A stretch of 64,000 nucleotides of DNA from Anaerolineae bacterium (lineage in GTDB: Bacteria; Chloroflexota; Anaerolineae; Aggregatilineales; J027). The notes beneath the pieces are model-generated. The model had not been told where the DNA came from. It made no database searches and saw only the letters and a program-made list of their open reading frames with translations. The stretch lies in NCBI GenBank assembly GCA_034437655.1, contig DAOTTU010000046.1, positions 55,115 to 119,114 on the forward strand. The letters run 5' to 3'. A program made the position numbers and the translations under genes. Below are positions 4,069-62,566 of the stretch, piece by piece (within the stretch, counting starts at the first letter, position 1; the number at the start of each line of letters is the position of its first letter).

Positions 4069-6651
4069 CTACATCAAACGTACTCTGCTCCCGGCGCTGG
4101 TTTTTTCGACTTCCAGGCGGACGGGGAAAGCATCACGGAGTTCGTCAATGTGGGTGATAACCAGGATCAGGTCGAAGTCGTCTTGAATGGCAGTGATCGC
4201 CTCGACAAGGCGTTCGCGTCCACTGGCATCCTGTGTACCAAAGCCTTCGTCAATGAACAGCGTGCGCAACTGTGCCCCGGCGCGACGTGCCAACAACTGA
4301 CTGACCGCCACCCGAATGGCAAAATTGATGCGGAAGGCCTCACCGCCGCTGTAAAGCTGATAGTCGCGGGTGCCCAATTCATCGCTGATGGAAATGTCGA
4401 ATGTTTCAGCCACACCACCGGTTTTCTTTTCACGCTGAGTGTCAAACCGGACGACCAACCGACCGTCTGTCATGCGCCGCAAGAGATGGTTGGTCGCGTC
4501 TTCCAGTTCAGGCACCGCCGCTTCTATGACCATCGTCGGGATACCGTTTTTGCTAAACGCAACGCGAATTTCCTCGAACACACCTTTGCTTTGGTTCAAT
4601 TCATCCAACAGCGTCTTTTCTTGCTTGAGCTTCTCGCGCTTCTGCTCAATGGCTCGCAAGGTTTGTCGCAACCCGATGACCTTTTCGTGCAGTTGGCGCT
4701 CAGTGGTGCGCAGTTCGGTCCAGGCTTTTTCACGGCGATTCATTTCTAGCACGCGGGCTTCGCGTTCGACCAACTCAGCTTCCTCAGCAGTGTATTGTTC
4801 TTCCAGATCAGTAATATACTGCTGATAGCGCTCATATTGTGCAGTGGTATCGTCTAATGATTCCTGCAAGTTCTGCATGGACTCTAGCGCTGTGCTAAGC
4901 AGGGTTGCCTCTTGCTGAAAACCACGATAGGCGTCGAGTGTTTCTTTGATTTCAGAGTGCGTATCCTGGCTATAATTCAGGGCGTCGCGTTGCTCATAAA
5001 GTGCGATCAGTTCCTGTTGCAACTCGTGCGCAAAATCACGGTCAGCCAGTACCCGTTCCCATTCTTGAACAGCCCGCTTCATGGATTGAGCTTCTTCTTC
5101 GGCGGCGTGGGCTTCTTCAAGCTGGCGTTCAATGCTACCGACTTTGCTTTGCAACGGCTTCAAATCTGTAAGCCCGTTTTGCAGCACACGGATCGACCCC
5201 TGCCGCTCTTTGACCTCTGCGACGATGTCTTTGATGCGTTGTTTGTTGGCGCGGAAGGTGTCGCCCATGTCAGTACCCTGTTGGGTGTATTCTGCAATCA
5301 GGTTAAGGCGATGTTCTTCATTGAGTGGTTGGCCACACGCCGGGCAAACAGTGTCTGCGGCTTGCTGAAGCGTGTCAATCCGCATTTTGATGTCGTCCAT
5401 TTGTTCTTTAAGGCCCGTGTTTTCGCCCTTGAGTTCGCCTTCTTCCGCCCGGAGAGCTGCAATTTCATCTTTCAGGGTCTGGACACGAGTATCGTCCATT
5501 TCCAGGAGGCTGATGCGCTGTCGCAACTTATCAATTTCTTGTTGTAATTCAGCGGCCGCGTCTGCCTGTTTCAAGTTACGTTCAATCACGCCACTGGAAG
5601 ACGAAATCTGCTTGTGCAACTCGGCTTCTTGCTCACGAATTTGTGCTTCAACTTCATAGATCGACTGGTTCAGGTTGTTGAGGAGTTGAAGCTGGTCGGC
5701 AAGGGAATCGTTCATCTCCTGTGCTTCAACAAGGCGGGCATACCCATCTTCAATGGCTTCACGGCGTTCGATGATGTCTTGATATTGGGCAATCTGTCCT
5801 TGCAAACGCTCTCGTCGCGCTTTGATGGTTGTCATTTCTTTAGACTGGCGTTCAATGTCGCGCTGTAGGCGACTGATGGCGTCTTTGGTGTTGCGAAATT
5901 CAATGTCAGCGCCTGCTAGCTCACGGAAGGCGGCTCCGGCTTGTTCAGCCTGGTCGCGGGCGTGTTCGTATTCCTGGCTAGCCCGGCTATATTCTTGCTG
6001 AAACGCTGGTTCTTGTGCGATTTCTTCTTCAAGTTTCTTGATTTCAGCCGTGGTTGCATTTAAATCGGCTTCAATCTGCGCGAGTTTGTCTTTGGCGCGT
6101 TTTTCATACAGCGCCCATACATCCAGATTCAGAATTTCAGTGAGAATGCGCTTGCGATTCGCAGCAGTTTGTACAGTGAAGGCGTCGGCGTTGCCCTGTT
6201 GTAAATAAGCGGAATTGATAAATGTTTCATGGTCTAGCCCAATGACAGCATTAATCCGCGCTTGTGTCTGTCGCATAGAGGGTTCGCTGATGATGCGATA
6301 GGTGTTTTCCTCGGGGACCCAGCCAAGCAGGTCAAGTGTACTGGTGCCAGCGCCGCGCCCACCTGTTTTGCGTTTACGTCCAATTTTGCGATGCCGTCGA
6401 ATGCGGTAAAATTCATCACCCTGTACGAAGTCCAATGTGATAGACATTTCCTCTTGCCCGATATGTATCAGGTCGTCGTCGGACCGCGCGCGCGACTTGC
6501 CCCAGATGGCCCAGGTAATCGCGTCTAAAATAGAGGATTTGCCGGCACCGTTTGGGCCGCTTAAACAGGCCAGGTGAATGCCTTCAAAGTAGATTGCGTC
6601 TGGCGTGCGGTAGGCCAGAAAATTCACCAGTTCAAGGCGCGTGGGTAGCAT
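4069..6651 (-). CDS. sbcC: SbcC/Rad50 SMC-family ATPase
   Basis: Walker A GPNGAGKSS, Q-loop, long coiled coils, central Zn-hook CPACG, signature YSGGE, Walker B LFIDEGFG, H-loop ITH. Confidence 0.9.
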   Translation of the reverse strand: MLPTRLELVNFLAYRTPDAIYFEGIHLACLSGPNGAGKSSILDAITWAIWGKSRARSDDDLIHIGQEEMSITLDFVQGDEFYRIRRHRKIGRKRKTGGRGAGTSTLDLLGWVPEENTYRIISEPSMRQTQARINAVIGLDHETFINSAYLQQGNADAFTVQTAANRKRILTEILNLDVWALYEKRAKDKLAQIEADLNATTAEIKKLEEEIAQEPAFQQEYSRASQEYEHARDQAEQAGAAFRELAGADIEFRNTKDAISRLQRDIERQSKEMTTIKARRERLQGQIAQYQDIIERREAIEDGYARLVEAQEMNDSLADQLQLLNNLNQSIYEVEAQIREQEAELHKQISSSSGVIERNLKQADAAAELQQEIDKLRQRISLLEMDDTRVQTLKDEIAALRAEEGELKGENTGLKEQMDDIKMRIDTLQQAADTVCPACGQPLNEEHRLNLIAEYTQQGTDMGDTFRANKQRIKDIVAEVKERQGSIRVLQNGLTDLKPLQSKVGSIERQLEEAHAAEEEAQSMKRAVQEWERVLADRDFAHELQQELIALYEQRDALNYSQDTHSEIKETLDAYRGFQQEATLLSTALESMQNLQESLDDTTAQYERYQQYITDLEEQYTAEEAELVEREARVLEMNRREKAWTELRTTERQLHEKVIGLRQTLRAIEQKREKLKQEKTLLDELNQSKGVFEEIRVAFSKNGIPTMVIEAAVPELEDATNHLLRRMTDGRLVVRFDTQREKKTGGVAETFDISISDELGTRDYQLYSGGEAFRINFAIRVAVSQLLARRAGAQLRTLFIDEGFGTQDASGRERLVEAITAIQDDFDLILVITHIDELRDAFPVRLEVEKTSAGSRVRLM

Positions 6652-6710
6652 AAATTGAGTTTCCTATTGACCTTTGGCGGCAAGTTTGGTCTATTGTACA
6701 CGATTTCCAA

Positions 6711-6719
6711 TGCTATAAT
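6711..6719 (+). promoter_or_regulatory. Extended -10 promoter element (TGcTATAAT) for the 6761 gene
   Basis: Perfect TGnTATAAT about 40 nt upstream of ATG 6761. Confidence 0.6.
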
Positions 6720-6760
6720 GACGAGGTTATTCGTCAAGCCTGAATAGTAGAAAATCATAG

Positions 6761-7996
6761 ATGCAAGCAATACCCGCAGCGAATGATCTACGTATTGAAT
6801 TTGATGCTGAATCCTGGCGATTGGTGAGTCACGAACTAGAGACGGAAACCCGGCTGGTTGAGGCCACGCCCGAAGGGTTGGTTACGCACCCCGTCTTTCG
6901 AGCGGCCCGCTCATTGCCGGGGGCAACCATTGCGCCTGCACAGATTGTTCGTGTCATGCTGGGCTGGGCCCCAGAAAATGAAGCCTGGCGCCTGGGGCTA
7001 CTGCTAACCGATGGTAGCGCTACTGTGGTGGATACCACCCAGATGCAATGGTGTGAACTCGCTGCCTGGCCCGGTGAACTTTTCGAGGCTGACCCCCAGC
7101 GTTTACGCTATGCTGGTCAGGCGTTGGCCCGCCTGTTAAATCGGCCGTTTCAACTGGTCCCTCCCAGCACACCCTCCCGCGTGCCAGCAATCGGCACCAC
7201 CCCGGCACCACTTGACGACATAGATGCTGACCTTGACGCTGACGATGAAGACACGCCCGAAAACACCAACCTCTCAAACCCAACGGCCCAGACTGCGCCG
7301 CCAAACATACGGCACCTCGTCCCAGAAATTGAGGTGGCCGACCTGCCAATCATGGTCACACATTGGCGTTTAATACCGACCGCAACTGGTGTGCAATGGG
7401 AACGGTTGCAACGCTGGTGGCTGTTTGGGATAGGGCGCTTGGTGTTGATCTTCGCGCTGAGTGTGTTGTTTCTTGTACTCAGTATTGGGAGCTTGACCCG
7501 TGGTATTGCTGCTGTGGAGCCAACCTGGTTACCCAACCTCGGTGTGGCAATTGGTCTGGTGCTGGTGGTCGCGCTGTTACAAACGTTGTGGACTATGTTG
7601 AATAGCCGTATGGTTGCTGTAGATCGGTTTCGCGGCGAGCTTTATGAACGTGGAGTGCTATTGCCGTTCATCCATTGGCGCATTCCGTTTGACCAAATTG
7701 AATATATTCTCATCAGTCAGAATGCACCGCGGCCTATGGGGCGGCGGCAACATCGCGAGCCGATGCATACGGCTCAGGACATCTGGCTGCATGCCTTTGA
7801 CGGTCAGAATTTTTATACCATCATTCATTTTGAAGATGTCGAAGGGCGCTCATGGGATTGGACGACTGTAAGAACACATCATCGCACGCATGTTCGGCGT
7901 AATTTGCAGTTGGCACAATATGACACCCCTGCACATCATGCAGCCAGCCAAATAGCTGATATAATCGGGGTACCTGTTTATCTTGATCTAGTGTAG
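6761..7996 (+). CDS. Hypothetical membrane protein (two central TM helices, acidic/Pro linker)
   Basis: 411-aa ORF with two hydrophobic segments (WWLFGIGRLVLIF.., LGVAIGLVLVVALL..). No family recognised. Confidence 0.7.
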   Translation: MQAIPAANDLRIEFDAESWRLVSHELETETRLVEATPEGLVTHPVFRAARSLPGATIAPAQIVRVMLGWAPENEAWRLGLLLTDGSATVVDTTQMQWCELAAWPGELFEADPQRLRYAGQALARLLNRPFQLVPPSTPSRVPAIGTTPAPLDDIDADLDADDEDTPENTNLSNPTAQTAPPNIRHLVPEIEVADLPIMVTHWRLIPTATGVQWERLQRWWLFGIGRLVLIFALSVLFLVLSIGSLTRGIAAVEPTWLPNLGVAIGLVLVVALLQTLWTMLNSRMVAVDRFRGELYERGVLLPFIHWRIPFDQIEYILISQNAPRPMGRRQHREPMHTAQDIWLHAFDGQNFYTIIHFEDVEGRSWDWTTVRTHHRTHVRRNLQLAQYDTPAHHAASQIADIIGVPVYLDLV

Positions 7997-10758: not shown

Positions 10759-11804
10759 AGCTGCACGAAACGCATTTAAAACCCCTGGCGGATGCTGTCG
10801 GGGTGTCTGGACGCGAAGATGAAGTCCGCAACCTGATTTATGCTGCCATCAAAGATCATGTCGAAGACGCCCGCGTTGATGCGATGGGAAATCTGTTGGC
10901 TGTCAAAAAAGGCACCGGTGAGTCTGACCTGCGGGTGCTTGTCGCGGCACACATGGACGAGGTCGGCTTTATGGTGACAGGGTTCGACAGCAGTGGGATG
11001 TTAGAAGTCCGTGCTGTGGGTGGTGTTGACCACCGTATTTTACCCGCGTTGCGTGTGCAGGTCGGTGACGATAAACTACCGGGCTTTTTTACATGGAAGC
11101 CGATCCATATGAACCGGGGCAATAGCGTTCAGAAAATCGACACGCTGAAGGTGGACATTGGCGCGACGAGCAAAAGTGCTGCGCAGGGCAAAGCCACACT
11201 CGGGGACCGTGTTGCGTTTCTCAGTGAAACCGTCGAGCTAACCGATACGGTGATTCGTGGCAAAGCCTTTGATGATCGTACGGGTTGCGCAGAACTGATC
11301 GAGCTGATTAAAGGAGAACCGTTCCCCTTCGACTTGCTGGTGGCCTTCACTGTGCAAGAAGAAGTCGGGTTGCGTGGGGCATCGGTGCTGGGTGAAGCGC
11401 TCAAGCCAGACGCCGCTGTTATTCTGGAATGTACCGCTTGCCATGAAGTGCCACAGCCTGAAGATGAACCTGACATGACAACCGTCACCAGGATGGGCCA
11501 CGGCCCCGTGCTGAGCGTGATGGATGCACGCACGATTGCGCACCCCGGCCTGCGTGACCATTTTATTGACACAGCCGAACGCAACGACATCCCCTACCAA
11601 TTCCGTTCACCGCAATATGCTGGCGGTACAGACGCCGGGAGTATTCATATGTCGGTGGGGGGGGTGCCTTCAATTTCTGTATCGGTGCCGGGGCGTTACT
11701 TGCATACCCCGAATATTGTGATGAGCATGGATGATTTTAGTAATGTAGTGGCCCTGGTTCGGCAAGCGTTGCTGACCCTTGCGCCTGCCAACCTGGAGAG
11801 ATAG
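10755..11804 (+). CDS. M42 family aminopeptidase, paralogue 2
   Basis: GVSGRE, AHMDE, KAFDDR, QEE, ILE, GGTDAG, YLHT. ATGA overlap with paralogue 1. Confidence 0.9.
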   Translation: MKLHETHLKPLADAVGVSGREDEVRNLIYAAIKDHVEDARVDAMGNLLAVKKGTGESDLRVLVAAHMDEVGFMVTGFDSSGMLEVRAVGGVDHRILPALRVQVGDDKLPGFFTWKPIHMNRGNSVQKIDTLKVDIGATSKSAAQGKATLGDRVAFLSETVELTDTVIRGKAFDDRTGCAELIELIKGEPFPFDLLVAFTVQEEVGLRGASVLGEALKPDAAVILECTACHEVPQPEDEPDMTTVTRMGHGPVLSVMDARTIAHPGLRDHFIDTAERNDIPYQFRSPQYAGGTDAGSIHMSVGGVPSISVSVPGRYLHTPNIVMSMDDFSNVVALVRQALLTLAPANLER

Positions 11805-16887: not shown

Positions 16888-17907
16888 TCAATCTACATGC
16901 CAGCGCATGTGCATCAAACGCCGCTTAATTTTGAAATCATGTTCGCGGAGGGCGGTTGCCGCGTGTGGATCGTCGGCAGGGTGTTCAAGCATCAAGCCCC
17001 GCCGATAGTCTGCAACCAGCCGCATCGCAAATCCGAGCATATCGTGTTCAAGTTGGCCCTGTGCATCAGGTTCAACCAGCAGTTCAAGCGGGCGGTAGCG
17101 CGAGCCGAATGTGTTTTGCATCGACAGCGCTGCTAGCAACTGTCTTTCTGAATCACGTGCTACCCACCATTGCCGACTTTGCAAACCGAGGGCGCTCAAC
17201 ACCGTCTCGCCGAGGGTACGCTTGAAGGTGGTAGGTGTAGTCGGTCGCAGCCACCCTAAGCCACCCGCAACGTTTGGGCGAATACGTTTTGCAAGGTCGT
17301 AAATCTGTCGCCATTCATGGCGTGAACGCATGGTGATATCGGGTGCAGCATTACGCCGCGCCGGGATAATCGCTGTATAGGTTGGGTACCACTGCCAGCG
17401 TGTAAAGACACGTTCAATCGCAAAATCTAAGTTGGTGTATAGCTTCTGGGCCCCTTCATTTTCAGCATCGACTTGTAGCAGTACGGTTTCCATGTTGCGT
17501 TGCCGTGCGGTTTCAAGCGCAGCATCCATTATTGCTCTGGCAATTCCACGACGCCGATATTCTGGATGCACGGCGACATTGGCGATCACCAGTGTCTTCG
17601 GTAAATGCACATCATAAATTGAGACATTGCCAACCAGACGCCCCGTTGGTGGGTCAATCCAGACGAACCCTTTGTTCATCGAACGCAAGCCCCGGTCCAG
17701 CGAAGCCAGGAGCCACAATAGCGGCCCTGAGCGGCTCAGCGAGCGCATTTCGCGTACAGCCGCCCGTCCAGCAGAGTCCATGTCTGCACCAAAGGAAAGC
17801 TCAATCAAGTCTGCAATGGCCCCGAGATCTTGTCGTAAACGCACCGGCCGCAGCCCGGGGTTTGCGGTTGGTGATTGTGTTGATGGAAACGTAGATGATG
17901 CTGCCAT
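16888..17907 (-). CDS. GNAT family N-acetyltransferase (tandem GNAT fold)
   Basis: Acetyl-CoA motif A NVAVHPEYRRRGIARAIM and motif B NEGAQKLY..LDF. ATG 17907 with an AGAGGG SD. Confidence 0.85.
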   Translation of the reverse strand: MAASSTFPSTQSPTANPGLRPVRLRQDLGAIADLIELSFGADMDSAGRAAVREMRSLSRSGPLLWLLASLDRGLRSMNKGFVWIDPPTGRLVGNVSIYDVHLPKTLVIANVAVHPEYRRRGIARAIMDAALETARQRNMETVLLQVDAENEGAQKLYTNLDFAIERVFTRWQWYPTYTAIIPARRNAAPDITMRSRHEWRQIYDLAKRIRPNVAGGLGWLRPTTPTTFKRTLGETVLSALGLQSRQWWVARDSERQLLAALSMQNTFGSRYRPLELLVEPDAQGQLEHDMLGFAMRLVADYRRGLMLEHPADDPHAATALREHDFKIKRRLMHMRWHVD

Positions 17908-17917
17908 AAAGCCCTCT

Positions 17918-19126
17918 TTAACTATCTTCAAGCGTTGTGAGTAGCTGTTCTGCCTCCTCGATGCTTATTTTACCATCTTGAACCATCTGCAGAATAAGCA
18001 ACCGCTCTTCCTCACGTACGGGTTCAGCAGGCTGTTGCGGTGGCTGGCGTTGCTCAAAGCGGCGCGCGCGTTCTGCATTACGTTCTGCGTTGCGTTCAGC
18101 ATGGCGTCGTGCCCGTTCGGCCGCACGGTGGGCCCGTTGTTGTGCGCGTTCGGCTCCTCTAGCAGCCCGCTGCCGGACACGTTCCATCGTAGATTCAATG
18201 TCAAGGTCTTCTACCGCTCGTGCCGAGGCACTGGCAAAGGCTTTGGCCTGTTCTTCGATCATTTTGCCCAGTGTTGCAAAGCGCTTGTTGAGTTCGCTTT
18301 CCATTTCTTTGAACTGGCTGCCAAAATCGAAATCAAAATTGACTTCGTTCGCCGGGTCGGCGGCGACTCTGAATGCCACTGTATTGGCTTCATGGATTTG
18401 TACTGTGGCCGCACCATCCCCAAACACAATGACCTGCATATCTGTGTCATCGTCTGTGTGTTGCTCGGTTACTTCTGTTGCTTTGAGTTTCAGCATAACC
18501 TCAACATCTGCCGGAATAAGAAACGTGGCGTTTGTAGCGGGCAGGATGTCAAATACAATCGAGTCATTTGCGGCGAAATTATAATCGTTTTCAGGGCTAA
18601 AGGTGATACCCACGCTCAGATCGCCACTAACATATTCAATCCCACACCCACCGCTGATATTACGCAGCAACAGGTCGCCACTAACATGAGCCACTGTGAC
18701 GTGACCATCAACGCGCGAAATCGCTGCGTCCCCACTGACTGAGGTCAGCGCGACATTACCGTCAATACCCTTGATTTCGGTATCACCCAGTAAGTTGTCG
18801 ATCACGAGCTGTCCTTCAACGCGGCGTAACGAAGAATCCCCGTGAATACTGGTAATGTCAAGACGTGCAGCCAACCCGGTGATTTTAGCATCACCATTGA
18901 CCTGCTGAATGTGAATAGGGAGCTTAGCGGGGAGTTTCATAGCGCAATCGCCCGCACAACGAATCCGCACCGGAGCCTGTGGATCGTCGGGAACCTCGAT
19001 ATCGGTATTGCTACCCCGGATGACCGCTTCTTCGCCAGCTTGCCCACGGAGTTGCATGTCGCCATCAATTTGTTCAATGATGATGCGTCGGTTCTCACCG
19101 AACTTTTCGTACAAATTCATATCCAT
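17918..19126 (-). CDS. DUF4097 (toast-rack beta-helix) protein with a charged coiled coil and a C-terminal SHOCT-like hairpin
   Basis: Repeating I-x-x-V-x-G-D beta-strand units, an R/A/E-rich helix (AERN repeats) and the C-terminus EEERLLILQMVQDGKISIEEAEQLLTTL. Confidence 0.82.
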   Translation of the reverse strand: MDMNLYEKFGENRRIIIEQIDGDMQLRGQAGEEAVIRGSNTDIEVPDDPQAPVRIRCAGDCAMKLPAKLPIHIQQVNGDAKITGLAARLDITSIHGDSSLRRVEGQLVIDNLLGDTEIKGIDGNVALTSVSGDAAISRVDGHVTVAHVSGDLLLRNISGGCGIEYVSGDLSVGITFSPENDYNFAANDSIVFDILPATNATFLIPADVEVMLKLKATEVTEQHTDDDTDMQVIVFGDGAATVQIHEANTVAFRVAADPANEVNFDFDFGSQFKEMESELNKRFATLGKMIEEQAKAFASASARAVEDLDIESTMERVRQRAARGAERAQQRAHRAAERARRHAERNAERNAERARRFEQRQPPQQPAEPVREEERLLILQMVQDGKISIEEAEQLLTTLEDS

Positions 19127-19129
19127 CCC

Positions 19130-19513
19130 TCACTTACTCAAGAGCTTAACAGCTTCGTCGGGGCTAATATCTCCAGTAGCAAGCTGTTCCAGCACCTTCA
19201 TGCGTTGTTCTTCGCGTTGTGCTGCTTCGGCTTCAGTATCGGTAATGGGTTCATAGCCCATCGCATTGATAATTTCATGCAGGCGGCTGCGGACCGTTGG
19301 GTACGAAATACCCAGTTCACGCTCAACCCGATTAATTTTGCCCTCACACCGCAAGAATACCTCGACAAATTCAATCTGTTCGTTGCTAAGCGAAGCCAGC
19401 CCGCTAATCTCGAACCGGCCTTCAATCGAGATATCACAATGTTCACATTCCAGTCGAGTGGCCACGACAGGGCCCTCACATATAGGGCAATGTGTCAAAA
19501 TAGGATGATACAT
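19130..19513 (-). CDS. DUF2089 family protein (Zn ribbon + HTH + SHOCT-like tail), putative regulator
   Basis: CPIC..CEHC Zn ribbon, LSNEQIEFVEVFL..EGKINRVERELGISYPTVRSRL HTH, tail EQRMKVLEQLATGDISPDEAVKLL. ATG 19513 with an AGGAG SD. Confidence 0.9.
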   Translation of the reverse strand: MYHPILTHCPICEGPVVATRLECEHCDISIEGRFEISGLASLSNEQIEFVEVFLRCEGKINRVERELGISYPTVRSRLHEIINAMGYEPITDTEAEAAQREEQRMKVLEQLATGDISPDEAVKLLSK

Positions 19514-19548
19514 ACGACGACTCCTGACCAAACTTGATATTTAACCAT

Positions 19549-21089: not shown

Positions 21090-21800
21090 CTAGAGCTGAA
21101 GATACCCGAGCCGCAACATAACCGTTACGAGGTCATCCTGGCTTTCTGGCGGTGTTACCTTCTTCAATTCGCTGCATACATTGCCGGGTTCTATTGACTC
21201 ACCCAGTACACGCTCAATAGTTGGGCCATCCCAGACATCAATGGTACTGAGGAGAATACCAGAAAATGGCGGCAAGTATTTAATGACAATATCGGCGTCC
21301 GGCGCTTTTGCGGTAGCCCCTAACAGCTTGGTCGGGGCAGCACCATTGCTGGTCAAGCGTTGGAGCCCGTCGTCATTCATGACAAATGCACAGCCGTTGC
21401 CGATGCTAGTCATAAAGAGACGATTGTCTACAACCACGACCGAAAGCATTTCGATGTGGGCGTCTTCGTGGTTGTCATAAACTTGTTTATTGGCGAGTTG
21501 AACGGTGTCGCTGAGAACCTCATTGACGGCCGGCGCTTCGTCCAAATCATCAAGCGTAATATGGTAAAACTTCTGCATAAGCTGGGTGGCAACAGTGCGG
21601 GCAACAAGGGCTGCGGCATTCACATTGTCGGGGCTTTGGCTGGCTGCTTCATTGCTGATATGCGTGAGTGTAAAAACCCCAAAATCGTTACATTCACCGT
21701 CACCACACCGCGTTGCAGTCAATGAAACGGCAAAAGCGCGGCGTTCTTGAATATGATTATTGCTGAGTTGACAATAAGTCAGACGATCATCTGAAGCCAT
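21090..21800 (-). CDS. PP2C/PPM phosphatase-fold protein with degenerate metal ligands
   Basis: Order of motifs is PP2C-like (AN..VY, L...SIGNG.AF, LQRLT, ILLS, DDLVTV), but the ADGxGG and SDGl motifs are replaced. Confidence 0.6.
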
Positions 21801-21966
21801 GAATCTTATCCTGATGGTTGGCTCATGAGTTGGTTGCTACCCGCAACTATAACGCAAAATCAGGTGCATGAGAAGTCTATTGCATGTTGTTGGCGGTTTG
21901 TTGCACAATGTCGATACTGCTACGCTAAGCTCAAGTGATGTTCTATAGTTCAATGGAGCCGCCTGC

Positions 21967-22842
21967 ATGGATCAACCTCAGGTAATTTACGATCCAGATG
22001 TTGTTGATCAACTTGAAATCACCGGGTTTTTGGCTGATGTTATGACTCACATGCGTGATGTGGTAGCGCAACGTCAAGCGCAGGTGCCGACTAACGGACT
22101 GCGTGCGCTGAACTCGATTCAACGCCGTCCACGTGACCTGATCAGTTATTTGCGCCAGGACCGTTCGATGTCACTGATTATTGAAATCAAGCGTCGAACC
22201 CACCTCGGGCAGGTTCTCTTTGAAGATCGCTACGAACCTGATGACATCGCGCGATATTATCAAGACCTTGGGGTGCAAGCCATTGCAGTCGCAACCAATG
22301 AACGCTATTATGGCGGCGCATTGCATCACCTCACGTATGTCTCGCAGGAAGTCAAAATCCCCGTTATTCGACAGGACTTCGTTTTTGACCGCTATCAGGT
22401 CTACGAAGCACGTGCGGCTGGTGCTGACAGTGTAATCCTCATCGCAGCCTTGCTGGGCCAATATCGCCTGTGGGATTTGGTGTCACTCACACAGCGCCTA
22501 CGCATGACAGCGATTGTGCAGGTTGAAACAGAAGAGGAACTCCGCCGCGCCTTGAATGTTGATCCACGGGTGATTTGCATTAGCAATGTCAATTGGCGCA
22601 CACTTGAAGTCGATCTCAGCAAAACGACACAACTCGCGAAGTTGATTCCATCGCATGTGTTGACGATTTCGATGGGTGGAGTCCGCACTGCCGAAGACGT
22701 AACACAGCTTGCTGAAGCCAATGCTGACGCAATTATTGCGGGTGAGGCGATTTTGAGCGCACCGGATAAGCTGGCGGCGATAGAGGACTTATTTTCGATG
22801 ATTGATACCAACCCGACCGACCCCTGGAAGCCTGTCGAATGA
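21967..22842 (+). CDS. Indole-3-glycerol-phosphate synthase (TrpC)-like TIM barrel, probably catalytically inactive
   Basis: IIEIKR, AIAVATNERYYGG, DF.FD.YQVYEARAAGADSVILIAALL, L.M..IVQV are TrpC-like, but several catalytic residues are substituted. Confidence 0.8.
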   Translation: MDQPQVIYDPDVVDQLEITGFLADVMTHMRDVVAQRQAQVPTNGLRALNSIQRRPRDLISYLRQDRSMSLIIEIKRRTHLGQVLFEDRYEPDDIARYYQDLGVQAIAVATNERYYGGALHHLTYVSQEVKIPVIRQDFVFDRYQVYEARAAGADSVILIAALLGQYRLWDLVSLTQRLRMTAIVQVETEEELRRALNVDPRVICISNVNWRTLEVDLSKTTQLAKLIPSHVLTISMGGVRTAEDVTQLAEANADAIIAGEAILSAPDKLAAIEDLFSMIDTNPTDPWKPVE

Positions 22843-23720
22843 CGCGCCGTTATTTGCTGCTGGTTATTGTGCTGGCGGTTGTGCTGGCGGCTTGTGAAGA
22901 TGCCCCTGCCGAACCGCTCGTTAATGATGAAAACGCCCCGGTGCTGGTCGGCGATGCCCGCAGCCTGCCCAAGCAACTCGTCACCGTAGAGTTATCCCCC
23001 ACGCCAGACGCCGCCGCCGCAGCCCGCACACCGCAGGCAACTACACCCCCACCACCAACCGACGAGCCACTGCCTTTAGACCCGACTCGGACACCGACGC
23101 CCTTTGTGGGTGTGTTCGTGGGAACAGCGGTTGAGGGCACGCCGGGAAGCGCCGCCGTTGTGCCGGGCTCACCCAATTTGGGGACAGGTGGGTTGTCTGG
23201 TGGCGTAGGGAGTGGGGTTGGAACAACACCCGTTGCTGCTCCCGGAAATTGCCCCTTCGCTGTAGCAGATACCTTTGCACCGACCTACACCACCAACGAG
23301 AGCATTACGGCACAACTTGGGTGCCCACAGGATGCTGGCACAACGGTAAGCCTGGTACACCAACCCTTTGAACGTGGCTCGATGTACTGGCGCGACACTC
23401 GTCAAATTTACGCGCTACAGCCGAACAACGTGCTGCAAATTGTGCCAGACACCTGGCAAGAAAGCATCCCCGCCAGCGACCCAGCATTTTCGCCACCGTC
23501 ACCGAACCTGTTCCAGCCTGTGCGCGGTTTTGGCTTTGTGTGGCGCAGCAATGAGGGGTTACGCAATGCGCTGGGGTGGGCAACGCAACCAGAATCCTTT
23601 GTCTCAGGTTTCTGGCAAAACTTCGAAAATGGTGTGATCTTCCAGCGGCAGGATAACGGAAACGTCTTTGTATTGGTTGGGCCACCCGGGGGTAACGGCA
23701 CCTTCTATGGGCCGTTCTAG
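22839..23720 (+). CDS. Predicted lipoprotein with a PT-rich linker and a C-terminal LGCP..QPFERG.M.W..GFG.VW..LGWA domain
   Basis: Signal peptide with lipobox LAAC. ATGA overlap with the TrpC-like gene. Confidence 0.75.
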   Translation: MTRRYLLLVIVLAVVLAACEDAPAEPLVNDENAPVLVGDARSLPKQLVTVELSPTPDAAAAARTPQATTPPPPTDEPLPLDPTRTPTPFVGVFVGTAVEGTPGSAAVVPGSPNLGTGGLSGGVGSGVGTTPVAAPGNCPFAVADTFAPTYTTNESITAQLGCPQDAGTTVSLVHQPFERGSMYWRDTRQIYALQPNNVLQIVPDTWQESIPASDPAFSPPSPNLFQPVRGFGFVWRSNEGLRNALGWATQPESFVSGFWQNFENGVIFQRQDNGNVFVLVGPPGGNGTFYGPF

Positions 23721-23727
23721 TGCGCTG

Positions 23728-24921
23728 CTACCAGCCCAGATAGCTATGCGGGTTTTCACGGACGCCTGTCACGTTGCGAATTTCAAAATGCACATGCGGC
23801 CCGCTTGAATTACCAGAATTACCGAGTCCACCAATACGCTGACCGGCTTCGACGATTTGCCCACACCACACGTCAATCTCGCTGAGATGTGCATACAGGG
23901 ACATCACCGGGCCGTGTGCTACGACGATGGTATAGCCATAGCCCCACGTACTCCACCCGCGAAAAATAACCGTGCCGCTACCGACTGCATATACCGGATC
24001 GCCCATGCGGCCAGCGAGATCGACGCCGGGGTGCGCTTGAGTGTAATCATTGGTCAACACATAGCCGCGCGTCGGGAGTGTAACTGGCATCCCACCCCCA
24101 TAAATAGGCTGCACACCACATGAGCCAGGTTGCCCCTGCCCAAAAACCGCCTCGCCATTGTAGATTTGCGTTAAGCCACTCCCGGTTGACTCTACATTGG
24201 CATAGACGCTGTTGGGTGGTTCGTAGTATAGCGGCTCCCAGGCACCTGTCCCGCCGGGAATCACCACGCGCAAGCCAGCAGGTAGCAGATGTTCAGGATT
24301 AGCATCACGAAGGGCGTTAAAGTCTGAGTTGATGATCGTGAGCGGGTCCACAAGATACTGTTCGGCAAGTTCCTGGATCGTTACGGGTTGTTGCACGATA
24401 TGCAATGCGCCGTCAAAAGGCAAAATCATCATTTCAAAGCCAACCTGCAAGGCATTGTTATAAAAGCGGCGATTGGACCAGATCAGCGTGTATTCTTCCA
24501 GTCCGTAGCGGGTCGCGATGTCGTTGACGGTTTCGCCACGTTGGACAACATGCGTGACAATTGCGCTACGCTGCGGGGCCGGGTTAATGGTGAAGGGGCT
24601 CTCGGCGCGTGAGACATTCACGGCCCGGTCATCTGCATCAAGCGGCTGTGCGATTGAGGTTGCGATACTGTCCGGGTCGGCTGTGGATAGGGGTGTTGCT
24701 GTGATCGTTGGCAACGATGTCACGCTCGGACGAGGTGTACTGGTCGTTGTTGGCGTTATTGAAGGTGTCAGCGTCAGCGTGCTGGTTGGCGTTGCGACAG
24801 CGACCTCTTCGGCGTCCTCGTCTGGTAACAGGAACAGCCCCAGCGCCGCGATTGTCAGCATCAGGGCCATGACCAACAAAGCACCGCCTATCCAGCGTGG
24901 GTTTGGGCTCTGGCTATGCAT
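23728..24921 (-). CDS. Membrane-anchored LysM + M23 metallo-endopeptidase
   Basis: N-terminal TM helix, PT linker, LysM (HVVQRGETVNDIATRYGL), Zn motifs HPGVD and HVH (GPHVHFEIR). Confidence 0.9.
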   Translation of the reverse strand: MHSQSPNPRWIGGALLVMALMLTIAALGLFLLPDEDAEEVAVATPTSTLTLTPSITPTTTSTPRPSVTSLPTITATPLSTADPDSIATSIAQPLDADDRAVNVSRAESPFTINPAPQRSAIVTHVVQRGETVNDIATRYGLEEYTLIWSNRRFYNNALQVGFEMMILPFDGALHIVQQPVTIQELAEQYLVDPLTIINSDFNALRDANPEHLLPAGLRVVIPGGTGAWEPLYYEPPNSVYANVESTGSGLTQIYNGEAVFGQGQPGSCGVQPIYGGGMPVTLPTRGYVLTNDYTQAHPGVDLAGRMGDPVYAVGSGTVIFRGWSTWGYGYTIVVAHGPVMSLYAHLSEIDVWCGQIVEAGQRIGGLGNSGNSSGPHVHFEIRNVTGVRENPHSYLGW

Positions 24922-24933
24922 TGTTCGCCGCCT

Positions 24934-26256
24934 TTAGCACCGAATCGTAAAGCAGGGGTCAAGCGGTTCGAAATTGGCATTGCGGATTTCAAAGTGCAGG
25001 TGTGGCCCCGACGAACGGCCCGTACTGCCGAGTGTACCAATAACCGCCAATGCGCCGACTTGTTGCCCACATGAGACGCCAATACTGTTCAGGTGGGCGT
25101 AAATCGTGAAGCTAGAGCCGTGTGCAATCACAACAGTATTGCCATAGCCAAAGTTGTTCACCCCGGCGAAAATCACGGTGCCACCACCCGCTGCCCGAAT
25201 CGGGTCGCCTGTGTTGCCAGCGAGGTCCACACCTGTATGCGCTGCACTGAAGCCTGCGAAGAAATTTCCGGTATAGGGTTGATTCACAGGGAATGAACCG
25301 GGCGTGATGCTGCTGATATTGCAGCCTAGCAAGCCATAGAAGCGGACATAGTCAAGGATGTTGCTACCCGGGCCAGCGGGTGCGTTTTCATCGGCAGGCC
25401 CAGCACCGGACCAGATGGCACAGTTACCCCCATCACCGCCCGGCACCATAACCCCTGCCCCTTCAGGCAGAACCTGGTCTGGTTCAGCATCAACCAACAA
25501 TGGGTTATAGACCGACTCGATAATGTCTTCTGGGCTCACACCTGATGCCTCTGCGAGTTCTGCGATAGTAATTGGCGCGTTAATGCGGGCATAGTAACCA
25601 TCAACAGGGGGAATATTCAGGGCCACGCCGGGCCGTAGGGGGCTTACATTGCGCCGGTCGTTTGACCAGATGATTGAGCAAACGTCCTCTAGTTGAAACT
25701 GTTCCTTAATTTCATCGAGGGTGTCGCCCGTCTGCACAACGTAGCTTGCCAGTGTCACATTGCCCTGCCCGGTGTCTCCGATGCGCCGGGTAAACGGTGA
25801 GTTAGAGCGCTGCACAGCGTTCAGGTCAATGGCATCCTGTGCAACGACGGCCGGGGTGAGCAAGGCAACAGCAGCCACATCGACCGGGGCGGTTGGTAAC
25901 ACATCGGCACGGGTTGGTTGTGCGGTGGGTTCACCGGGGGCGACGGTTGGTGTTGGGGTGGCCGTGCTATCCTCATCCAGTGGTTTGGTGTCGGTCGTCG
26001 GCTCAGCAACAACAACGGGATCGCCTGTATTCTCGTCGTTTTCGGTATCACCCAGGAAAGTGAGCAGACCAGCGGCCAGCGTAAATACCAGAGCCGCAAT
26101 CAGCAGCATACCACCTACGAATTGCTGTTGCATACCGCTACGCGCTCCGACTGGTGCGGTGGGTGCAGTGGCGCTGGAGAGGGTATCATCGTTTTGTAAT
26201 GGCGGCTCTTCGGCGGCCAGTTTACGGAAAAGCTCGTCTGAACGTTGATCGGACAT
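24934..26256 (-). CDS. Membrane-anchored LysM + M23 metallo-endopeptidase, paralogue
   Basis: TM helix, PT linker, LysM (YVVQTGDTLDEI), HTGVD and GPHLHFEIR. Start moved to ATG 26256. Confidence 0.9.
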   Translation of the reverse strand: MSDQRSDELFRKLAAEEPPLQNDDTLSSATAPTAPVGARSGMQQQFVGGMLLIAALVFTLAAGLLTFLGDTENDENTGDPVVVAEPTTDTKPLDEDSTATPTPTVAPGEPTAQPTRADVLPTAPVDVAAVALLTPAVVAQDAIDLNAVQRSNSPFTRRIGDTGQGNVTLASYVVQTGDTLDEIKEQFQLEDVCSIIWSNDRRNVSPLRPGVALNIPPVDGYYARINAPITIAELAEASGVSPEDIIESVYNPLLVDAEPDQVLPEGAGVMVPGGDGGNCAIWSGAGPADENAPAGPGSNILDYVRFYGLLGCNISSITPGSFPVNQPYTGNFFAGFSAAHTGVDLAGNTGDPIRAAGGGTVIFAGVNNFGYGNTVVIAHGSSFTIYAHLNSIGVSCGQQVGALAVIGTLGSTGRSSGPHLHFEIRNANFEPLDPCFTIRC

Positions 26257-26438
26257 GGTTCCCTGTAATTTCATCAATCGGCAGATCAATGTCATCAGTG
26301 TAGCGTGACAGCCCGGTTTTTCAAGTTATGGTTGACCTACGCCTGTCACACATCCCACAGTGGTCAACGCATGAGTAGTGCAAATTCATGACGAGGGGTA
26401 CAATGCAGGCAGGCATCATAACAAGAAGGACGGGACTT

Positions 26439-27272: not shown

Positions 27273-29867
27273 CTACTCTGCGCGAATGGCCTCTACAGGT
27301 TGGATATGACTGGCCCGCCACGCCGGGTAAATGCCAGCCAGCAGTGCGGCAACAATTGACACCGCAAACGCCTGCAAAAAGAACTCCGCCCGCAGGTTGA
27401 GTTCTAACGCCCACCCAAAGCTGCGTAAATTGATGATGTAAATCAGAATCACGGAAAGCACCAACCCCACCGGCATCGCAACTACACCGGCAATCGTGCC
27501 CATAATCCCCGTTTCCCAGAAGGTGAGGCGGAACAACTGCCCGCGTGTGAGCCCGTTCGCCCGCATAATGCCGATTTCACGCCGCCGCTCGATTTGCAGG
27601 GCCATCAACGCGCTGAGAATACCGATAAAGGCCACCACTGTCGCCAGTAGATTCAACGCGCTGGTGATGGCAAAAGTGCGGTCGAAAACCTCAATTGCAC
27701 TGTCGCGCAACTCACGGTTTGACTGCACCAGCAAGCCCATGCCAGACAGCGCTTCGGTCATGCGTTGTTGCACGGCGTCAATGTCGGCGTCAGCTTCAAT
27801 ATAGGCGGCCAGACTGCTTATGCTGGTATCATTCCATTCTTCGCGATAGGTTTCTAAACCGATGAGTACCACACCCTCAATACTGGCGAAGTCTTGATAG
27901 ATGCCAAGTACCGAAAACTCCTCCGGGCCATCGTCTGTCACCAATTCCAGCGTCAGGTTGTCGTCCCACTCAATGTTGCGCGTGTTGGCAAAGACCTCTG
28001 AAATGAGCAAGCCACGCCCGTCAATCACCCGGTCGAAAATCTCGTCATAGCTGGCGTCAATGCTATCCGTAATGGTACGCTCCCCCTGTGAAATATCGCT
28101 CATGATGGCGTTGAGTTGCACATCGCGCTCAAATTCGGGTGATCTTACTTCTGCTACACGGACATAGGTCACACGCTCGACGCCTTCTACAGACTGTACC
28201 GTCCCAATAATGTCCTGTTCTAGCGGGATGGTCGCCAGGTCGCCTGTGGCGTTCGGTTGTGAGATGAATAGGTCAGCCGACAGCGTATCGAACAGCCAGT
28301 TCTGCACCGTGATGCGGAAGGAGCCGACCATTGTTGTCACGCCGATAATCACGCTGACGGAGAGCATTAGCGCGGTAATGGCAATGCTGGTGCGGCTCAG
28401 GTTGCGGAGGATGCTACGCGGTGCGATGCGCCCGACCAGACCACCGACTGCGCCCGTCACGGGTTGTATGACCTTTGCTAGAATGACCGTCGCCCACACC
28501 GTGAGCAGCGCCAGCCCGATGATGACTGCAAATACCGCGCCCAGGCTCACTACAAGGATTTCAATCGTTAGCAACAGTCCCCCGATAACCGCTGTTGCAA
28601 TACCAATTCCGGTGATATATGGCACCAGCTTGAGCATACGCTGTTCAAGGTCGCTGCGGCGGGTGGCGCTGGTGGGTGGTGTGTTGGTCGCTTCATAAGC
28701 GGGGAGGAGCGCCGCTAACAGAGCTGCCCCCACGCCAACCACTAAGCCCCGCAGCAAAATCCACGGCGTGACTCGCGTCTCGGAGACGTTCACCGTGAAG
28801 TAGGAGTCATTGACCGTCTGTGTTACGGCGTCCACCGTAAAGCGGCCGAGCAAAATGCCAAGCCCCAGCCCCAGCACCGAGCCAACGAATGCCAGCAAGG
28901 CCGCCTCTGACCAGATCAAAAAGAAGGTCTGCCGCCGTGTAACGCCGAGACTGCGCATAATGCCAAGCACCGGCCGCCGTTGTACAACACTGAACGTCAC
29001 AGTGTTATAGACAAGGAACATCCCCACAACGAGCGCCAACAAACTGAGCGCCGTCAGGTTGAGTTCAAAAGCGTCGGTCATTTCGGCGACAGCGTTGCTC
29101 CGTGTGGTCGTTGTTTGCACACTGAGCCCGGCGGGGAGGAGCGCTGCAATGTCGGACATTGCTTGCTGGCCGGCGGGTGTATCCTCATCAATGATGAGGT
29201 CGATAGCAGTCAGGCGGCCGCGCATGTCGAGTAATTCCTGGGCCGTGCTGATGTCGGTGATAAGCAGGCTTTGCAGCGCTTGTTGGGTGAGTTGGTCGTC
29301 GGGGTTCAGCAGCCCGATAATGGTAATGTCCTCACGGCGGTCGCCATATTGCACGCTGATGGTGTCGCCCGGCGAGATGTCGTATTGCTCGGCCAACTCG
29401 CTGCCGAGTAGGGCCGTATTCGGCTCAATCAGAAAACGTCCTAGCGCGACTAAATCAGCACCCGCCTCGGTGCTGCCGACGTCAATCGTGCCCTCTGCCG
29501 TAATGTAATTGCGGAAGGGAGCCTCAGCGAAGGGGTCAATGCCAAAAACGCGCAACGGCTGTTCGTTAAAATCTTCAACCAGCACAAAGTCGGTCACAAT
29601 TGGCGCGGTTTCTTGCCAGCCAACCTGCGTGCGGATGTCGCTGTAGACCTTCTCGCTGAAGCCACGCGGCCCACCCGAGATTTCGTGGGTAGCACGGCCG
29701 ACGATGGCCTCTGTGCTGAGGTCAAACGCGGTGCGGGCACTGTTGTTGGCAATGTCGATAGAGACCATCATCGCTACACCAATCATCACACCGATAATCA
29801 GTAGCAGGCTTTGTGTGAAGCGTCGCCGGACATGACGCAACATCACGCGAAATAATGAGACAGGCAT
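27273..29867 (-). CDS. FtsX/MacB-type ABC transporter permease (double-length, AttF/G-like)
   Basis: Two MacB periplasmic + FtsX TM modules ([15 protein letters not shown]; [13 protein letters not shown]). Confidence 0.88.
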
Positions 29868-36405: not shown

Positions 36406-36478
36406 GGGCCCATAGCTCAATGGTTAGAGCAGTCGGCTCATAACCGATTGGTTGGGGGTTCGAGTCCCTCTGGGCCCA
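36406..36478 (+). tRNA. tRNA with CAT anticodon, most likely tRNA-Ile2 (lysidine-modified); CCA end not encoded
   Basis: Acceptor stem GGGCCCA/TGGGCCC, D-arm AGCTCAATGGTTAGAGC, anticodon loop CTCATAA (CAT 36439-36441), T-loop GGTTCGAGTCC. The G1-C72 pair excludes initiator tRNA; the acceptor and anticodon stems resemble known Ile2 tRNAs. Confidence 0.92.
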
Positions 36479-59385: not shown

Positions 59386-60351
59386 ATGCCGATGCAAAAC
59401 CCGCTAAAAACAGTACTCAGTGTACTTGACCGCAAGCCCAATTCAGAAAAAGGCCAGAGCCTGGTAGAACTGACCTTGACGCTACCGATTTTTCTCATTA
59501 TGTTGCTGGGCCTGGCTGAAATTGGCTGGCTGGCAAATAACTATTTGACACTTGTAGACGTCACTCGTGAGGCAGGCCGTGTCGGGTCTGTGCGTGATCC
59601 ACTCGCCTGGAACAATGCCAATACCAAAAGCTATCAGGTGATGGATTGCGATGAATCCAGCACTACCTACAACAAGTATGGCAATGATGACCCCAGTATC
59701 ACTACCTGGCCGGGGAATCGTGCTGTACTGGATGGCCGTGGCTACTCAGATGGTGTAGACCCCGGTTTTGGCTACTATGACATTGTTGCCTGCAATATTG
59801 TGGTGAGTATGTTGCCGCTTGAATTTAACGACCAGGAAGACGACATCGTTATTTCGGTAATCACGTACTCTATTCTTGACCAGGATCCAGGTGCGGGGCA
59901 AAACTTGAGCGCACGTGTTACCGGTCGATTCCCCTCTAACAGCAATGAATGCCCCGGAGAACGGGACCCATTTGCCCCGGGCTTTGGGATAGACCCGAAC
60001 GATGCTGGTGTCTTCTTCGAACCGGGTAACGATAACCAACGTGGCTTTATCTTCCGAGGCAACCTTGAAGAAGATGGCTGCCTGGGGTCGCGCTTCGACA
60101 TCGCTGAAATTGAGGAATTGCTCAACCGCACGACCATTTTTGATGACACGTCCGATATCCGTAGCGAAGAAATTACACTGGTACCCAATAATGCAATGGT
60201 GCTTGTCGAAATTTCCTGGCAACACCAACAACTGCTGGGGCTGCCATTCTTCCAGTTTTTTGGAGAAGAATCGAATCTCAACGTGTGGTCGTTCTTCCCA
60301 GTTTCTGCTGCTGAACCAACCGCAACGCCTGAACCTGAACCAGGTCCTTAG
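59386..60351 (+). CDS. TadE/TadG-type minor pilin (pseudopilin)
   Basis: Class III signal motif KG/QSLVE followed by the hydrophobic helix LTLPIFLIMLLGLAEIG and REAGR. Confidence 0.85.
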   Translation: MPMQNPLKTVLSVLDRKPNSEKGQSLVELTLTLPIFLIMLLGLAEIGWLANNYLTLVDVTREAGRVGSVRDPLAWNNANTKSYQVMDCDESSTTYNKYGNDDPSITTWPGNRAVLDGRGYSDGVDPGFGYYDIVACNIVVSMLPLEFNDQEDDIVISVITYSILDQDPGAGQNLSARVTGRFPSNSNECPGERDPFAPGFGIDPNDAGVFFEPGNDNQRGFIFRGNLEEDGCLGSRFDIAEIEELLNRTTIFDDTSDIRSEEITLVPNNAMVLVEISWQHQQLLGLPFFQFFGEESNLNVWSFFPVSAAEPTATPEPEPGP

Positions 60352-60373
60352 TTTGTAGAGGTAAGCAAAACCG

Positions 60374-62542: not shown

Positions 62543-62566
62543 AGACAATTTGTAAGGGAGACTTAC

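Follow-up and report, generated by a model that had tools for sequence, protein, structure and literature searches.

A conserved Chloroflexota clade of TrpC-like proteins with altered catalytic positions, and its linkage to a predicted surface lipoprotein gene

What does a protein folded like indole-3-glycerol phosphate synthase (abbreviated IGPS; the TrpC enzyme of tryptophan synthesis) do once the catalytic residues of that enzyme have been replaced? The question is raised by a gene in a 64,000-nt stretch of contig DAOTTU010000046.1 (GenBank assembly GCA_034437655.1, positions 55,115 to 119,114 of the forward strand), which belongs to an Anaerolineae bacterium of the Aggregatilineales (Chloroflexota) and is referred to here as the window. 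A preliminary description, made from the DNA sequence alone, had read the gene as a TrpC-like pseudoenzyme outside any trp operon, and had proposed a repurposed TIM barrel that acts as a ligand sensor, a scaffold or a new catalyst. Residue loss, selection, the lack of a trp operon and linkage to a lipoprotein gene all support the repurposing, while they do not decide between sensor, scaffold and catalyst. We take the IGPS-like protein to be a natural pseudo-IGPS or a neofunctionalised TrpC paralogue. When we searched the literature for pseudoenzymes or paralogues of IGPS, no paper turned up that describes a clade of catalytically degenerate IGPS proteins.

Fold, catalytic positions and selection

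The IGPS fold assignment is secure because the protein matches the whole of the Pfam IGPS model PF00218 (E 2.5e-55, model positions 3-254 of 254), yields a confident AlphaFold2 model when 29 sequences of its clade are used as input (predicted local distance difference test, pLDDT, 86.5; predicted template modelling score, pTM, 0.85), and in that model superposes on the IGPS of Mycobacterium tuberculosis (MtIGPS, 3t44) in Foldseek with a template modelling (TM) score of 0.94 and a root-mean-square deviation of 1.7 Å. The predicted structure is an IGPS-type (beta-alpha)8 barrel with low-confidence termini at both ends. MtIGPS is also the closest natural relative in the PDB (E 7e-43); the top PDB sequence match, above MtIGPS, is a Kemp eliminase designed on IGPS-family backbones (9hvh, E 8.7e-49). 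All 14 NCBIfam TrpC equivalog models score the protein under their curated cut-offs, the best results being 208 bits against 329 and 206.6 bits against 260.

Substitutions were read from a residue-level alignment to MtIGPS and from a 32-sequence alignment, and are given in the numbering of Sulfolobus solfataricus IGPS (SsIGPS), with that of MtIGPS in brackets (Table 1). Every motif change listed in the preliminary description, namely the Gln residues at Lys110 and Glu159, CISNV in place of GINNR and an altered ESG phosphate loop, was found again in these alignments, as were the retained Glu51 and Lys53. The SPS motif that follows Lys53 is altered as well, while Asp111 and Phe112, an aromatic pocket residue, Lys53 and both glycine phosphate loops (Gly212 and Gly233) are retained. 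Across the clade the Glu51 position is not invariant (Glu in 24 sequences, Asp in three and Gln in two), and the Lys110 position is variable (Gln in 18, Asn in six, Arg in three and Glu in one). As every motif residue is retained in 77 of 77 canonical TrpCs drawn from many phyla, the pattern of substitutions in the IGPS-like protein is not chance variation.

Published mutagenesis of MtIGPS has hit the same positions. The Lys119Ala, Glu168Ala and Glu219Ala variants have no detectable activity, and the conservative Lys119Arg and Glu168Gln changes leave 0.00037 and 0.0001 of the wild-type kcat, respectively, while Glu219Gln outperforms the wild-type enzyme (PMC10591298). Glu159 (Glu168) stabilises the reaction intermediate and may act as a base. 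Asn180 is an essential residue and Arg182 contacts both the carboxylate and the phosphate of the substrate (PMC7681013). In the window protein, five positions for catalysis or binding are altered at once, and published single changes at three of them, milder than those seen here, cost 10^3- to 10^4-fold or all of the activity. Because the mutated positions are the same, canonical IGPS chemistry has probably been lost, and the protein very likely does not make indole-3-glycerol phosphate.

These substitutions are common to the members of a clade. A word-indexed search returned 32 proteins at 45-100% identity to the IGPS-like protein, all from Chloroflexota metagenome-assembled genomes (MAGs) or metagenomes, with Phototrophicales, Aggregatilineales and Anaerolineae among the named sources; below them, identity falls sharply, and canonical TrpCs reach no more than 39%. 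When 1.84 billion representatives were searched exhaustively with a profile, about 15,000 IGPS homologues came up, of which only two are clear 50%-identity representatives of the clade, besides a handful of intermediate scorers. Several sources label the clade proteins ‘indole-3-glycerol phosphate synthase’ or ‘hypothetical protein’.

The clade is under strong purifying selection. The open reading frame (ORF) of the IGPS-like gene is intact in all 16 loci compared, and the ratio of nonsynonymous to synonymous substitution rates (dN/dS) against a 90%-identical relative is about 0.03, an approximate value as dS is near saturation at about 2.2. Six neighbouring genes for which the ratio could be computed gave 0.037-0.096, all above that of the IGPS-like gene, which is thus among the best conserved of its neighbourhood. 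In deeper pairs, the proportion of synonymous differences (pS) is saturated at 0.7-0.88, with 0.09-0.39 for nonsynonymous differences (pN). The preliminary description had set purifying selection on the clade as a check, and these values reject the opposite outcome that it named, in which orthologues would be sporadic and decaying and dN/dS would be close to 1.

Phylogeny was inferred as a bootstrapped neighbour-joining tree with 200 replicates that included 29 canonical TrpCs, and long-branch attraction is a caveat of such a distance tree. The core clade is recovered in 195 of the 200 replicates. Together with the intermediate proteins P0058, P0059, P0061, P0062 and P0066 (from metagenomes and Ardenticatenia), it forms one branch apart from the canonical TrpCs in 200 of 200, and the canonical sequences nearest to this branch are from Chloroflexota. 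The distance from the clade to canonical TrpCs is larger than that between canonical TrpCs of different phyla (1.26 and 0.83). The tree indicates that one duplication, followed by accelerated change, lies behind the degenerate branch. All five intermediates have xGG in place of ESG and a residue other than Lys at position 110. They differ from the window clade in their residues at Glu159 (Glu, Ile, Pro, Lys or Gln), in often retaining Arg182, and in the sole context that was read (locus L099), which has neither lipoprotein nor M23 peptidase genes.

Within the clade, the old active-site face is the best-conserved part of the protein. With this face taken to comprise the eight strand ends and the loop residues that follow them, its mean entropy over the 29 clade sequences was 0.66 bits, compared with 1.07 bits for the remaining barrel (Mann-Whitney p = 0.0008). 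The clade-invariant residues are Lys75 (Lys53), Tyr114, Asp137, Phe138, Gln185, Asn207, Gly237, Gly238, Gly259 and a new Arg240. In the wider degenerate branch the old catalytic positions vary by subclade, with Gln, Ile, Pro, Lys or Glu at the Glu159 position, Gln, Asn, His, Thr or Arg at Lys110, and Arg, Ser or Cys at Arg240; apart from residues with a structural role, Lys53 and the phosphate loops xGG and G(E) are the only universal features. Catalytic positions that differ between subclades are what would be expected if the chemistry is no longer done there. The pattern suggests a pocket that bears the signature of phosphorylated-ligand binding, rather more than one in which the members share a new catalytic centre.

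Conservation also extends to the N-terminus. Clade members carry an extension of about 20 residues, of the form MDQPQxxYDPDxxDxLE, that the alignments do not find in canonical TrpC. It is modelled with a pLDDT of only 43-57, yet its mean entropy (0.88 bits) is lower than that of the non-pocket barrel (1.07 bits). P0031 and P0032 are without the extension. At the other end of the protein, most clade members share a DPTDPW tail, which the subclade of L009 and L096 does not have. The IGPS-like protein has no signal peptide.

Gene context and the linked lipoprotein

No trp gene was found within 10 kb on either side of the IGPS-like gene, in the whole window (tblastn with the ORFs of a trp operon) or in any of the 16 loci, which bears out the earlier remark that trp genes are not adjacent. 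What follows the gene instead is a predicted lipoprotein gene, the start codon of which overlaps the IGPS-like stop codon (Table 1), and no terminator was found between the two. Translational coupling of the pair, as stated in the preliminary description, agrees with this ATGA overlap. In 15 of the 16 loci the IGPS-like gene is followed by a homologue of the partner, and the IGPS-like proteins of those 15 are 49-100% identical to that of the window. The two genes overlap by 4 nt in the window, in L093 and in L009; in the remaining loci with called genes the junction is a 1-nt overlap, an abutment with no gap, or a gap of 6 or 17 nt, and in L012 a NUDIX gene lies between the two. From this arrangement we predict that the IGPS-like gene is co-transcribed with a surface lipoprotein gene, conserved in 15 of 16 loci. 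In L003 (MAG TC_152), the lipoprotein homologue is split into two reading frames at about 11462-11465, by a frameshift or an assembly error.

The signal peptide of the partner is followed by the lipobox LAAC (MTRRYLLLVIVLAVVLAAC), which fits the sequence pattern [LVI][ASTVI][GAS]C, with Cys19 encoded at 22893-22895; Ala18 and Cys19 are invariant in an alignment of seven homologues. Its C-terminal domain has two conserved Cys residues and, from about 23244, two LGFP-like repeats. Four of the seven homologues have an LGFP match at E <= 0.1.

The IGPS-like gene almost always occurs with the lipoprotein gene, and the reverse does not hold, so that the dependence is one-sided. L236, L245 and L248 share the downstream genes of the L012-type locus without an IGPS-like gene, and its presence is therefore patchy in that outlying lineage. 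In related lineages a NudE/AdpP-like NUDIX gene occupies or shares the IGPS-like position upstream of the same lipoprotein. Such NUDIX-lipoprotein pairs are widespread in metagenome contigs (L227-L250, L259 and L263) and far commoner than the IGPS-like-lipoprotein pair; in L012 (10857-12193) and L255, the IGPS-like, NUDIX and lipoprotein genes are consecutive.

Two paralogous M23 endopeptidase genes adjoin the IGPS-like-lipoprotein pair in 13 of the 16 loci. Both proteins have N-terminal anchors and Pro/Thr-rich linkers, with LysM detected in the first, and as the metal-binding HxxxD and HxH motifs are intact in both translations, both look active. Upstream, a PP2C-like gene, a DUF951 gene (DUF, domain of unknown function) and a gene resembling monogalactosyldiacylglycerol (MGDG) synthase glycosyltransferases are found in loci of the window type, a class A penicillin-binding protein (PBP) gene in L009, L096, L097 and L098, and genes of an ATP-binding cassette (ABC) transporter and a MacB/FtsX-type transporter in L095. 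Because these upstream genes vary by lineage, the invariant unit is the IGPS-like gene plus the lipoprotein gene, in an envelope-related neighbourhood. No convincing sigma-70-like promoter was found on the + strand of the 166-nt intergenic region upstream of the IGPS-like gene, and a search of the whole window at the Rfam gathering threshold returned no regulatory RNA upstream of it.

Table 1. Coordinates of the features assigned in the window (SsIGPS residue numbers, MtIGPS in brackets)
Feature	Position	Strand	Details	Evidence
IGPS-like (TrpC-derived) protein, probable catalytically degenerate TIM barrel	21967..22842	+	291 aa, ATG start	ORF, Pfam, NCBIfam, AlphaFold2, Foldseek
Shine-Dalgarno-like GGAG	21955..21958	+	8 nt 5' of the IGPS-like ATG	Sequence reading
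N-terminal extension of the IGPS-like protein, residues 1-21	21967..22029	+	MDQPQVIYDPDVVDQLEITGF; not in canonical TrpC	Alignments
E73-I74-K75	22183..22191	+	E51-x-K53 (E57/K59), kept in IEIK; K75 clade-invariant	Alignments
Q136	22372..22374	+	At the position of the general acid Lys110 (Lys119); IRQDF versus LRKDF	Alignments
Q185	22519..22521	+	At the position of Glu159 (Glu168); IVQV versus LVEV; Gln invariant in the 29-member clade	Alignments
S206-N207-V208	22582..22590	+	Replaces N180-x-R182 (N189/R191); CISNV versus G(I/V)N(N/A/S)R	Alignments
M236-G237-G238-V239-R240	22672..22686	+	Replaces E210-S211-G212 (E219/S220); G238 phosphate loop retained, R240 a new clade-invariant Arg	Alignments
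G259-E260	22741..22746	+	G233-S234 phosphate-binding loop; G259 invariant in clade and canonical sequences	Alignments
ATGA overlap	22839..22842	+	Partner start codon over IGPS-like stop codon	Sequence reading
Partner, predicted lipoprotein	22839..23720	+	293 aa	Signal peptide, lipobox, Pro/Thr-rich linker, C-terminal domain
M23 (LytM-type) peptidoglycan endopeptidase with LysM	23728..24921	-	Convergent on the gene pair	Pfam Peptidase_M23 E 8e-28 and LysM; NCBIfam MepM/DipM/ShyA-like
Second, paralogous M23 endopeptidase	24934..26295	-	37-39% identity to the first	
Divergent protein with weak PP2C resemblance	21090..21800	-	236 aa	Pfam PP2C_2 E 0.0086; Stp1 model E 0.0015; synteny
tRNA gene	36406-36478	+	Sole Rfam match of the window	Rfam gathering threshold

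Explanations for the conserved pocket

The explanation that we prefer, at somewhat less than an even chance, is that the IGPS-like protein is not an IGPS but a phosphate-ligand-binding pseudoenzyme tied to a cell-envelope module. A trpC gene would have been duplicated inside Chloroflexota and passed through a burst of change before strong purifying selection set in. Lys53, both glycine loops that hold the phosphate of the substrate and the aromatic residues of the pocket have been retained along with the barrel, and the invariant Arg240 has been gained beside the phosphate loop; this combination makes a cytoplasmic binding protein the most likely outcome. Its ligand would be phosphorylated and probably resemble a sugar phosphate, and binding of a phosphorylated metabolite is, as such, likely. 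The protein would be expressed from one mRNA, often with translational coupling, together with a cell-surface lipoprotein that bears wall-binding-type repeats, beside two M23 endopeptidases, and its conserved, apparently unstructured N-terminal peptide may be used for docking. The role that we propose would then be accessory or regulatory, within a module that remodels the cell envelope of filamentous Chloroflexota, and it is plausible that the protein serves this module as a sensor, regulator or accessory factor, perhaps docking via its N-terminus. We infer in this account that the protein catalyses nothing and that its function is connected with the cell wall.

Several observations weigh against such a role. 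The M23 genes are convergent with the IGPS-like gene and not co-transcribed with it, and the Pfam LGFP match (PF08310) on the partner is marginal, at 23 bits for a cut-off of 22 (E 1e-4), with no single stretch passing. A metagenome scan that started from the lipoprotein gave 20 homologues that were full-length and had 1.5 kb or more of sequence upstream, and the gene directly upstream was of the NudE/AdpP-like NUDIX type in 19 of them and IGPS-like in one; strict co-dependence of the lipoprotein and the IGPS-like gene was rejected, as 19 of the 20 partner loci are without the latter. In L099 (Ardenticatenia, 50% identity), the IGPS-like gene lies amid unrelated housekeeping genes with no lipoprotein or M23 gene nearby. 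Since the partner family is broader than the clade and L099 has no partner, the functional tie is possibly loose or lineage-specific. The partner is also predicted to be extracellular and the IGPS-like protein is without a signal peptide, so that a shared transcript need not mean that the two proteins touch. Furthermore, among the matches listed from scans of genomes, comparison of accessions, look-ups of single records and a probe from the contig flank, no canonical trpC could be placed in one assembly with an IGPS-like gene. Finally, the invariant polar pocket residues Lys75, Asp137, Gln185, Asn207 and Arg240 are equally compatible with a new reaction.

This last point leads to the possibility of a new enzyme, which we regard as unlikely while taking it seriously. 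After duplication, the barrel would have been re-tooled for another phosphorylated substrate, such as an envelope-relevant sugar phosphate or nucleotide-sugar derivative, with Lys75 as a base, acid or Schiff-base former and Gln185, Asn207 and Arg240 as binding residues. A pocket face that tops the rest of the protein in conservation, with the five polar residues just named invariant in all 29 members, would fit such an enzyme, as would the retained phosphate site and the very low dN/dS. The IGPS scaffold also evolves very readily, and it has served as the basis of many designed enzymes, among them retro-aldolases and Kemp eliminases. In addition, in the most distant clade members the gene directly downstream of the IGPS-like gene encodes a NudE/AdpP-like NUDIX hydrolase; enzymes of this type release sugar phosphates, and we treat this adjacency as a lead for either a binding protein or a new enzyme. 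What speaks against a re-tooled active site is that P0058, P0061, P0062 and P0066 have Ile, Pro, Lys or Glu at the Gln185 position and Ser or Cys at that of Arg240, that the Lys110 position is variable even in the core clade while the universal features are phosphate-binding and structural residues only, and that no metal-binding or acid/base pair is evident. Variation at Lys110, taken with the subclade-specific residues, suggests that there is no shared new active site, although both are compatible with catalysis that is specific to individual subclades.

More doubtful is a ligand-free scaffold or adaptor, in which the barrel would be a stable platform and the N-terminal peptide and DPTDPW tail would dock proteins of the envelope machinery. 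The termini have the properties that such docking segments might have, being of low confidence in the AlphaFold2 model, with an N-terminus that is better conserved than the non-pocket barrel and an extension that canonical TrpC does not have. A pure scaffold would not need the pocket face, however, and this face, including the phosphate loops and Lys75, is the most conserved part of the protein; the tail and the extension are themselves missing from the L009/L096 subclade and from P0031/P0032, respectively.

It is very improbable that the gene encodes the working IGPS of the organism, as a TrpC that is merely very divergent with unusual residues. The full-length fold, Lys53 and Glu51 and the phosphate site are retained, no canonical trpC was placed in the same genome among the matches listed, and the gain in activity of MtIGPS Glu219Gln means that not every change is harmful (PMC10591298). 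Nevertheless, five positions are changed together where either conservative substitution, Lys119Arg or Glu168Gln, costs 10^3- to 10^4-fold in kcat and replacement by Ala abolishes activity; the general-acid position is not conserved within the clade, and all TrpC equivalog cut-offs are missed. The gene is also never found in a trp operon, while relatives of the same lineage have complete canonical operons. A Phototrophicaceae MAG (L144) has a trpE-G-D-C-F-B-A operon that is complete and includes a fully canonical TrpC, and a similar canonical operon (TrpC P0355) from related Anaerolineae is present in the mat metagenomes that also contain the contig of the window. The P0355 contig has a GC content of 58.0%, compared with 53.0% for the window (50.2-54.7% in its chunks), and a tetranucleotide distance of 0.026 from the window, compared with at most 0.0165 within it. 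This mismatch makes the P0355 contig probably that of a related but different population, and its trp operon was not accepted as belonging to the same organism, as its composition is outside the window's own range.

A decaying pseudogene or an annotation artefact with no function, for which one might cite the patchy presence in the L012-type lineage (L236, L245 and L248), has a negligible probability given intact ORFs in 16 of 16 loci, a dN/dS of about 0.03 with pN/pS far under 1 at saturation, a confident AlphaFold2 model, a ribosome-binding site and translational overlap with the next gene.

Neighbouring genes, precedents and significance

Next to the IGPS-like gene, the PP2C-like gene is confined to loci of the Aggregatilineales type. 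Its product is fast-evolving, with 26-36% identity where the IGPS-like protein has 64-79%, and may be a second degenerate enzyme homologue of the neighbourhood. Beyond the M23 pair, a MacB/FtsX-type ABC transporter, consisting in the window of an 864-aa permease (27273-29867, - strand) with an ATPase gene beyond it, is located a few genes away in the window, L002, L004 and L093. In L095 (2731-6128), a MacB/FtsX-type transporter is just upstream, separated from the IGPS-like gene by one ABC-transporter gene. The proximity of such a transporter to the M23 pair recalls the FtsEX-type control of cell-wall hydrolases.

Further from the locus, on its upstream side, the window has a conserved cluster of DUF2089 zinc-ribbon, DUF4097/SHOCT-like and GNAT acetyltransferase genes (16888-19531, - strand); synteny with it is seen in L094 and, in part, in L093, where the contig ends inside it. 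The right edge of the window (59386-64000), with L182 (12194-16672), encodes a TadE-like protein, a VWA-like protein of 722 aa and a SpaA-like/TadE-domain protein of 1492 aa, and may be a pilus or adhesin cluster. An AMP-binding enzyme in the flank of the contig (L182 17496-19247) has a best match of 65% identity among 185,579 species-representative genomes, a set in which no near-identical genome was found. The canonical trp operons of the lineage have additional ORFs of their own: between trpG and trpD, L144 encodes a protein with an HNH-endonuclease domain (6549-7457) and L177-L181 an unannotated 277-aa protein (1092-1925), and a further unannotated ORF of 256-262 aa is found between trpB and trpA in Phototrophicaceae and related MAGs.

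Among known systems, the nearest is IGPS/TrpC itself (EC 4.1.1.48; MtIGPS 3qja and 3t44, SsIGPS 1igs and 1a53), which has the same barrel with extra N-terminal helices at 34-36% identity. The IGPS-like clade differs from it by the replacement of Lys110, Glu159, Asn180, Arg182, Glu210 and Ser211 and by the added N-terminal extension and, in most members, the DPTDPW tail; in contrast to canonical relatives in trpEGDCFBA operons, its gene is never in one. Chitinase-like lectins of glycoside hydrolase family 18 (GH18) are TIM-barrel pseudoenzymes that have lost the catalytic acid while keeping a conserved ligand groove under purifying selection. They share the logic of a dead barrel with a retained pocket, but are eukaryotic, secreted and carbohydrate-binding and belong to an unrelated barrel superfamily, whereas the protein described here is cytoplasmic, bacterial and of the ribulose-phosphate-binding type. 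EnvC and NlpD are degenerate LytM/M23 factors that regulate cell-wall hydrolases, and thus set a precedent for a dead homologue that regulates peptidoglycan remodelling; M23 and FtsX/MacB-type genes are also nearby here, although the dead component would be a cytoplasmic IGPS-fold protein and not an M23 domain.

A more specific and speculative form of the pseudoenzyme explanation, which we think improbable as it stands, is that the ‘dead TrpC’ is a cytoplasmic sugar-phosphate sensor that would dock by its N-terminal peptide and couple the state of a nucleotide-sugar or pentose-phosphate pool to the production of the wall-bound lipoprotein, and hence to M23-dependent peptidoglycan remodelling. 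If true, a regulatory pseudoenzyme of a new kind would have been built on the IGPS scaffold.

The clade has few members, which are restricted to Chloroflexota that are mostly uncultured, and the functions discussed for it are read from sequence and context. Its automatic annotation as indole-3-glycerol phosphate synthase means that genomes can be wrongly credited with a step of the tryptophan pathway. IGPS is among the most studied model barrels for mechanism, evolution and computational enzyme design, and a clade that keeps the fold and the phosphate half of the pocket while its catalytic apparatus appears to have been discarded would be a ready-made evolutionary experiment on this scaffold. 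The linkage to a predicted surface lipoprotein and M23 peptidases, in turn, offers a lead into the poorly understood cell-envelope biology of Anaerolineae-type Chloroflexota.

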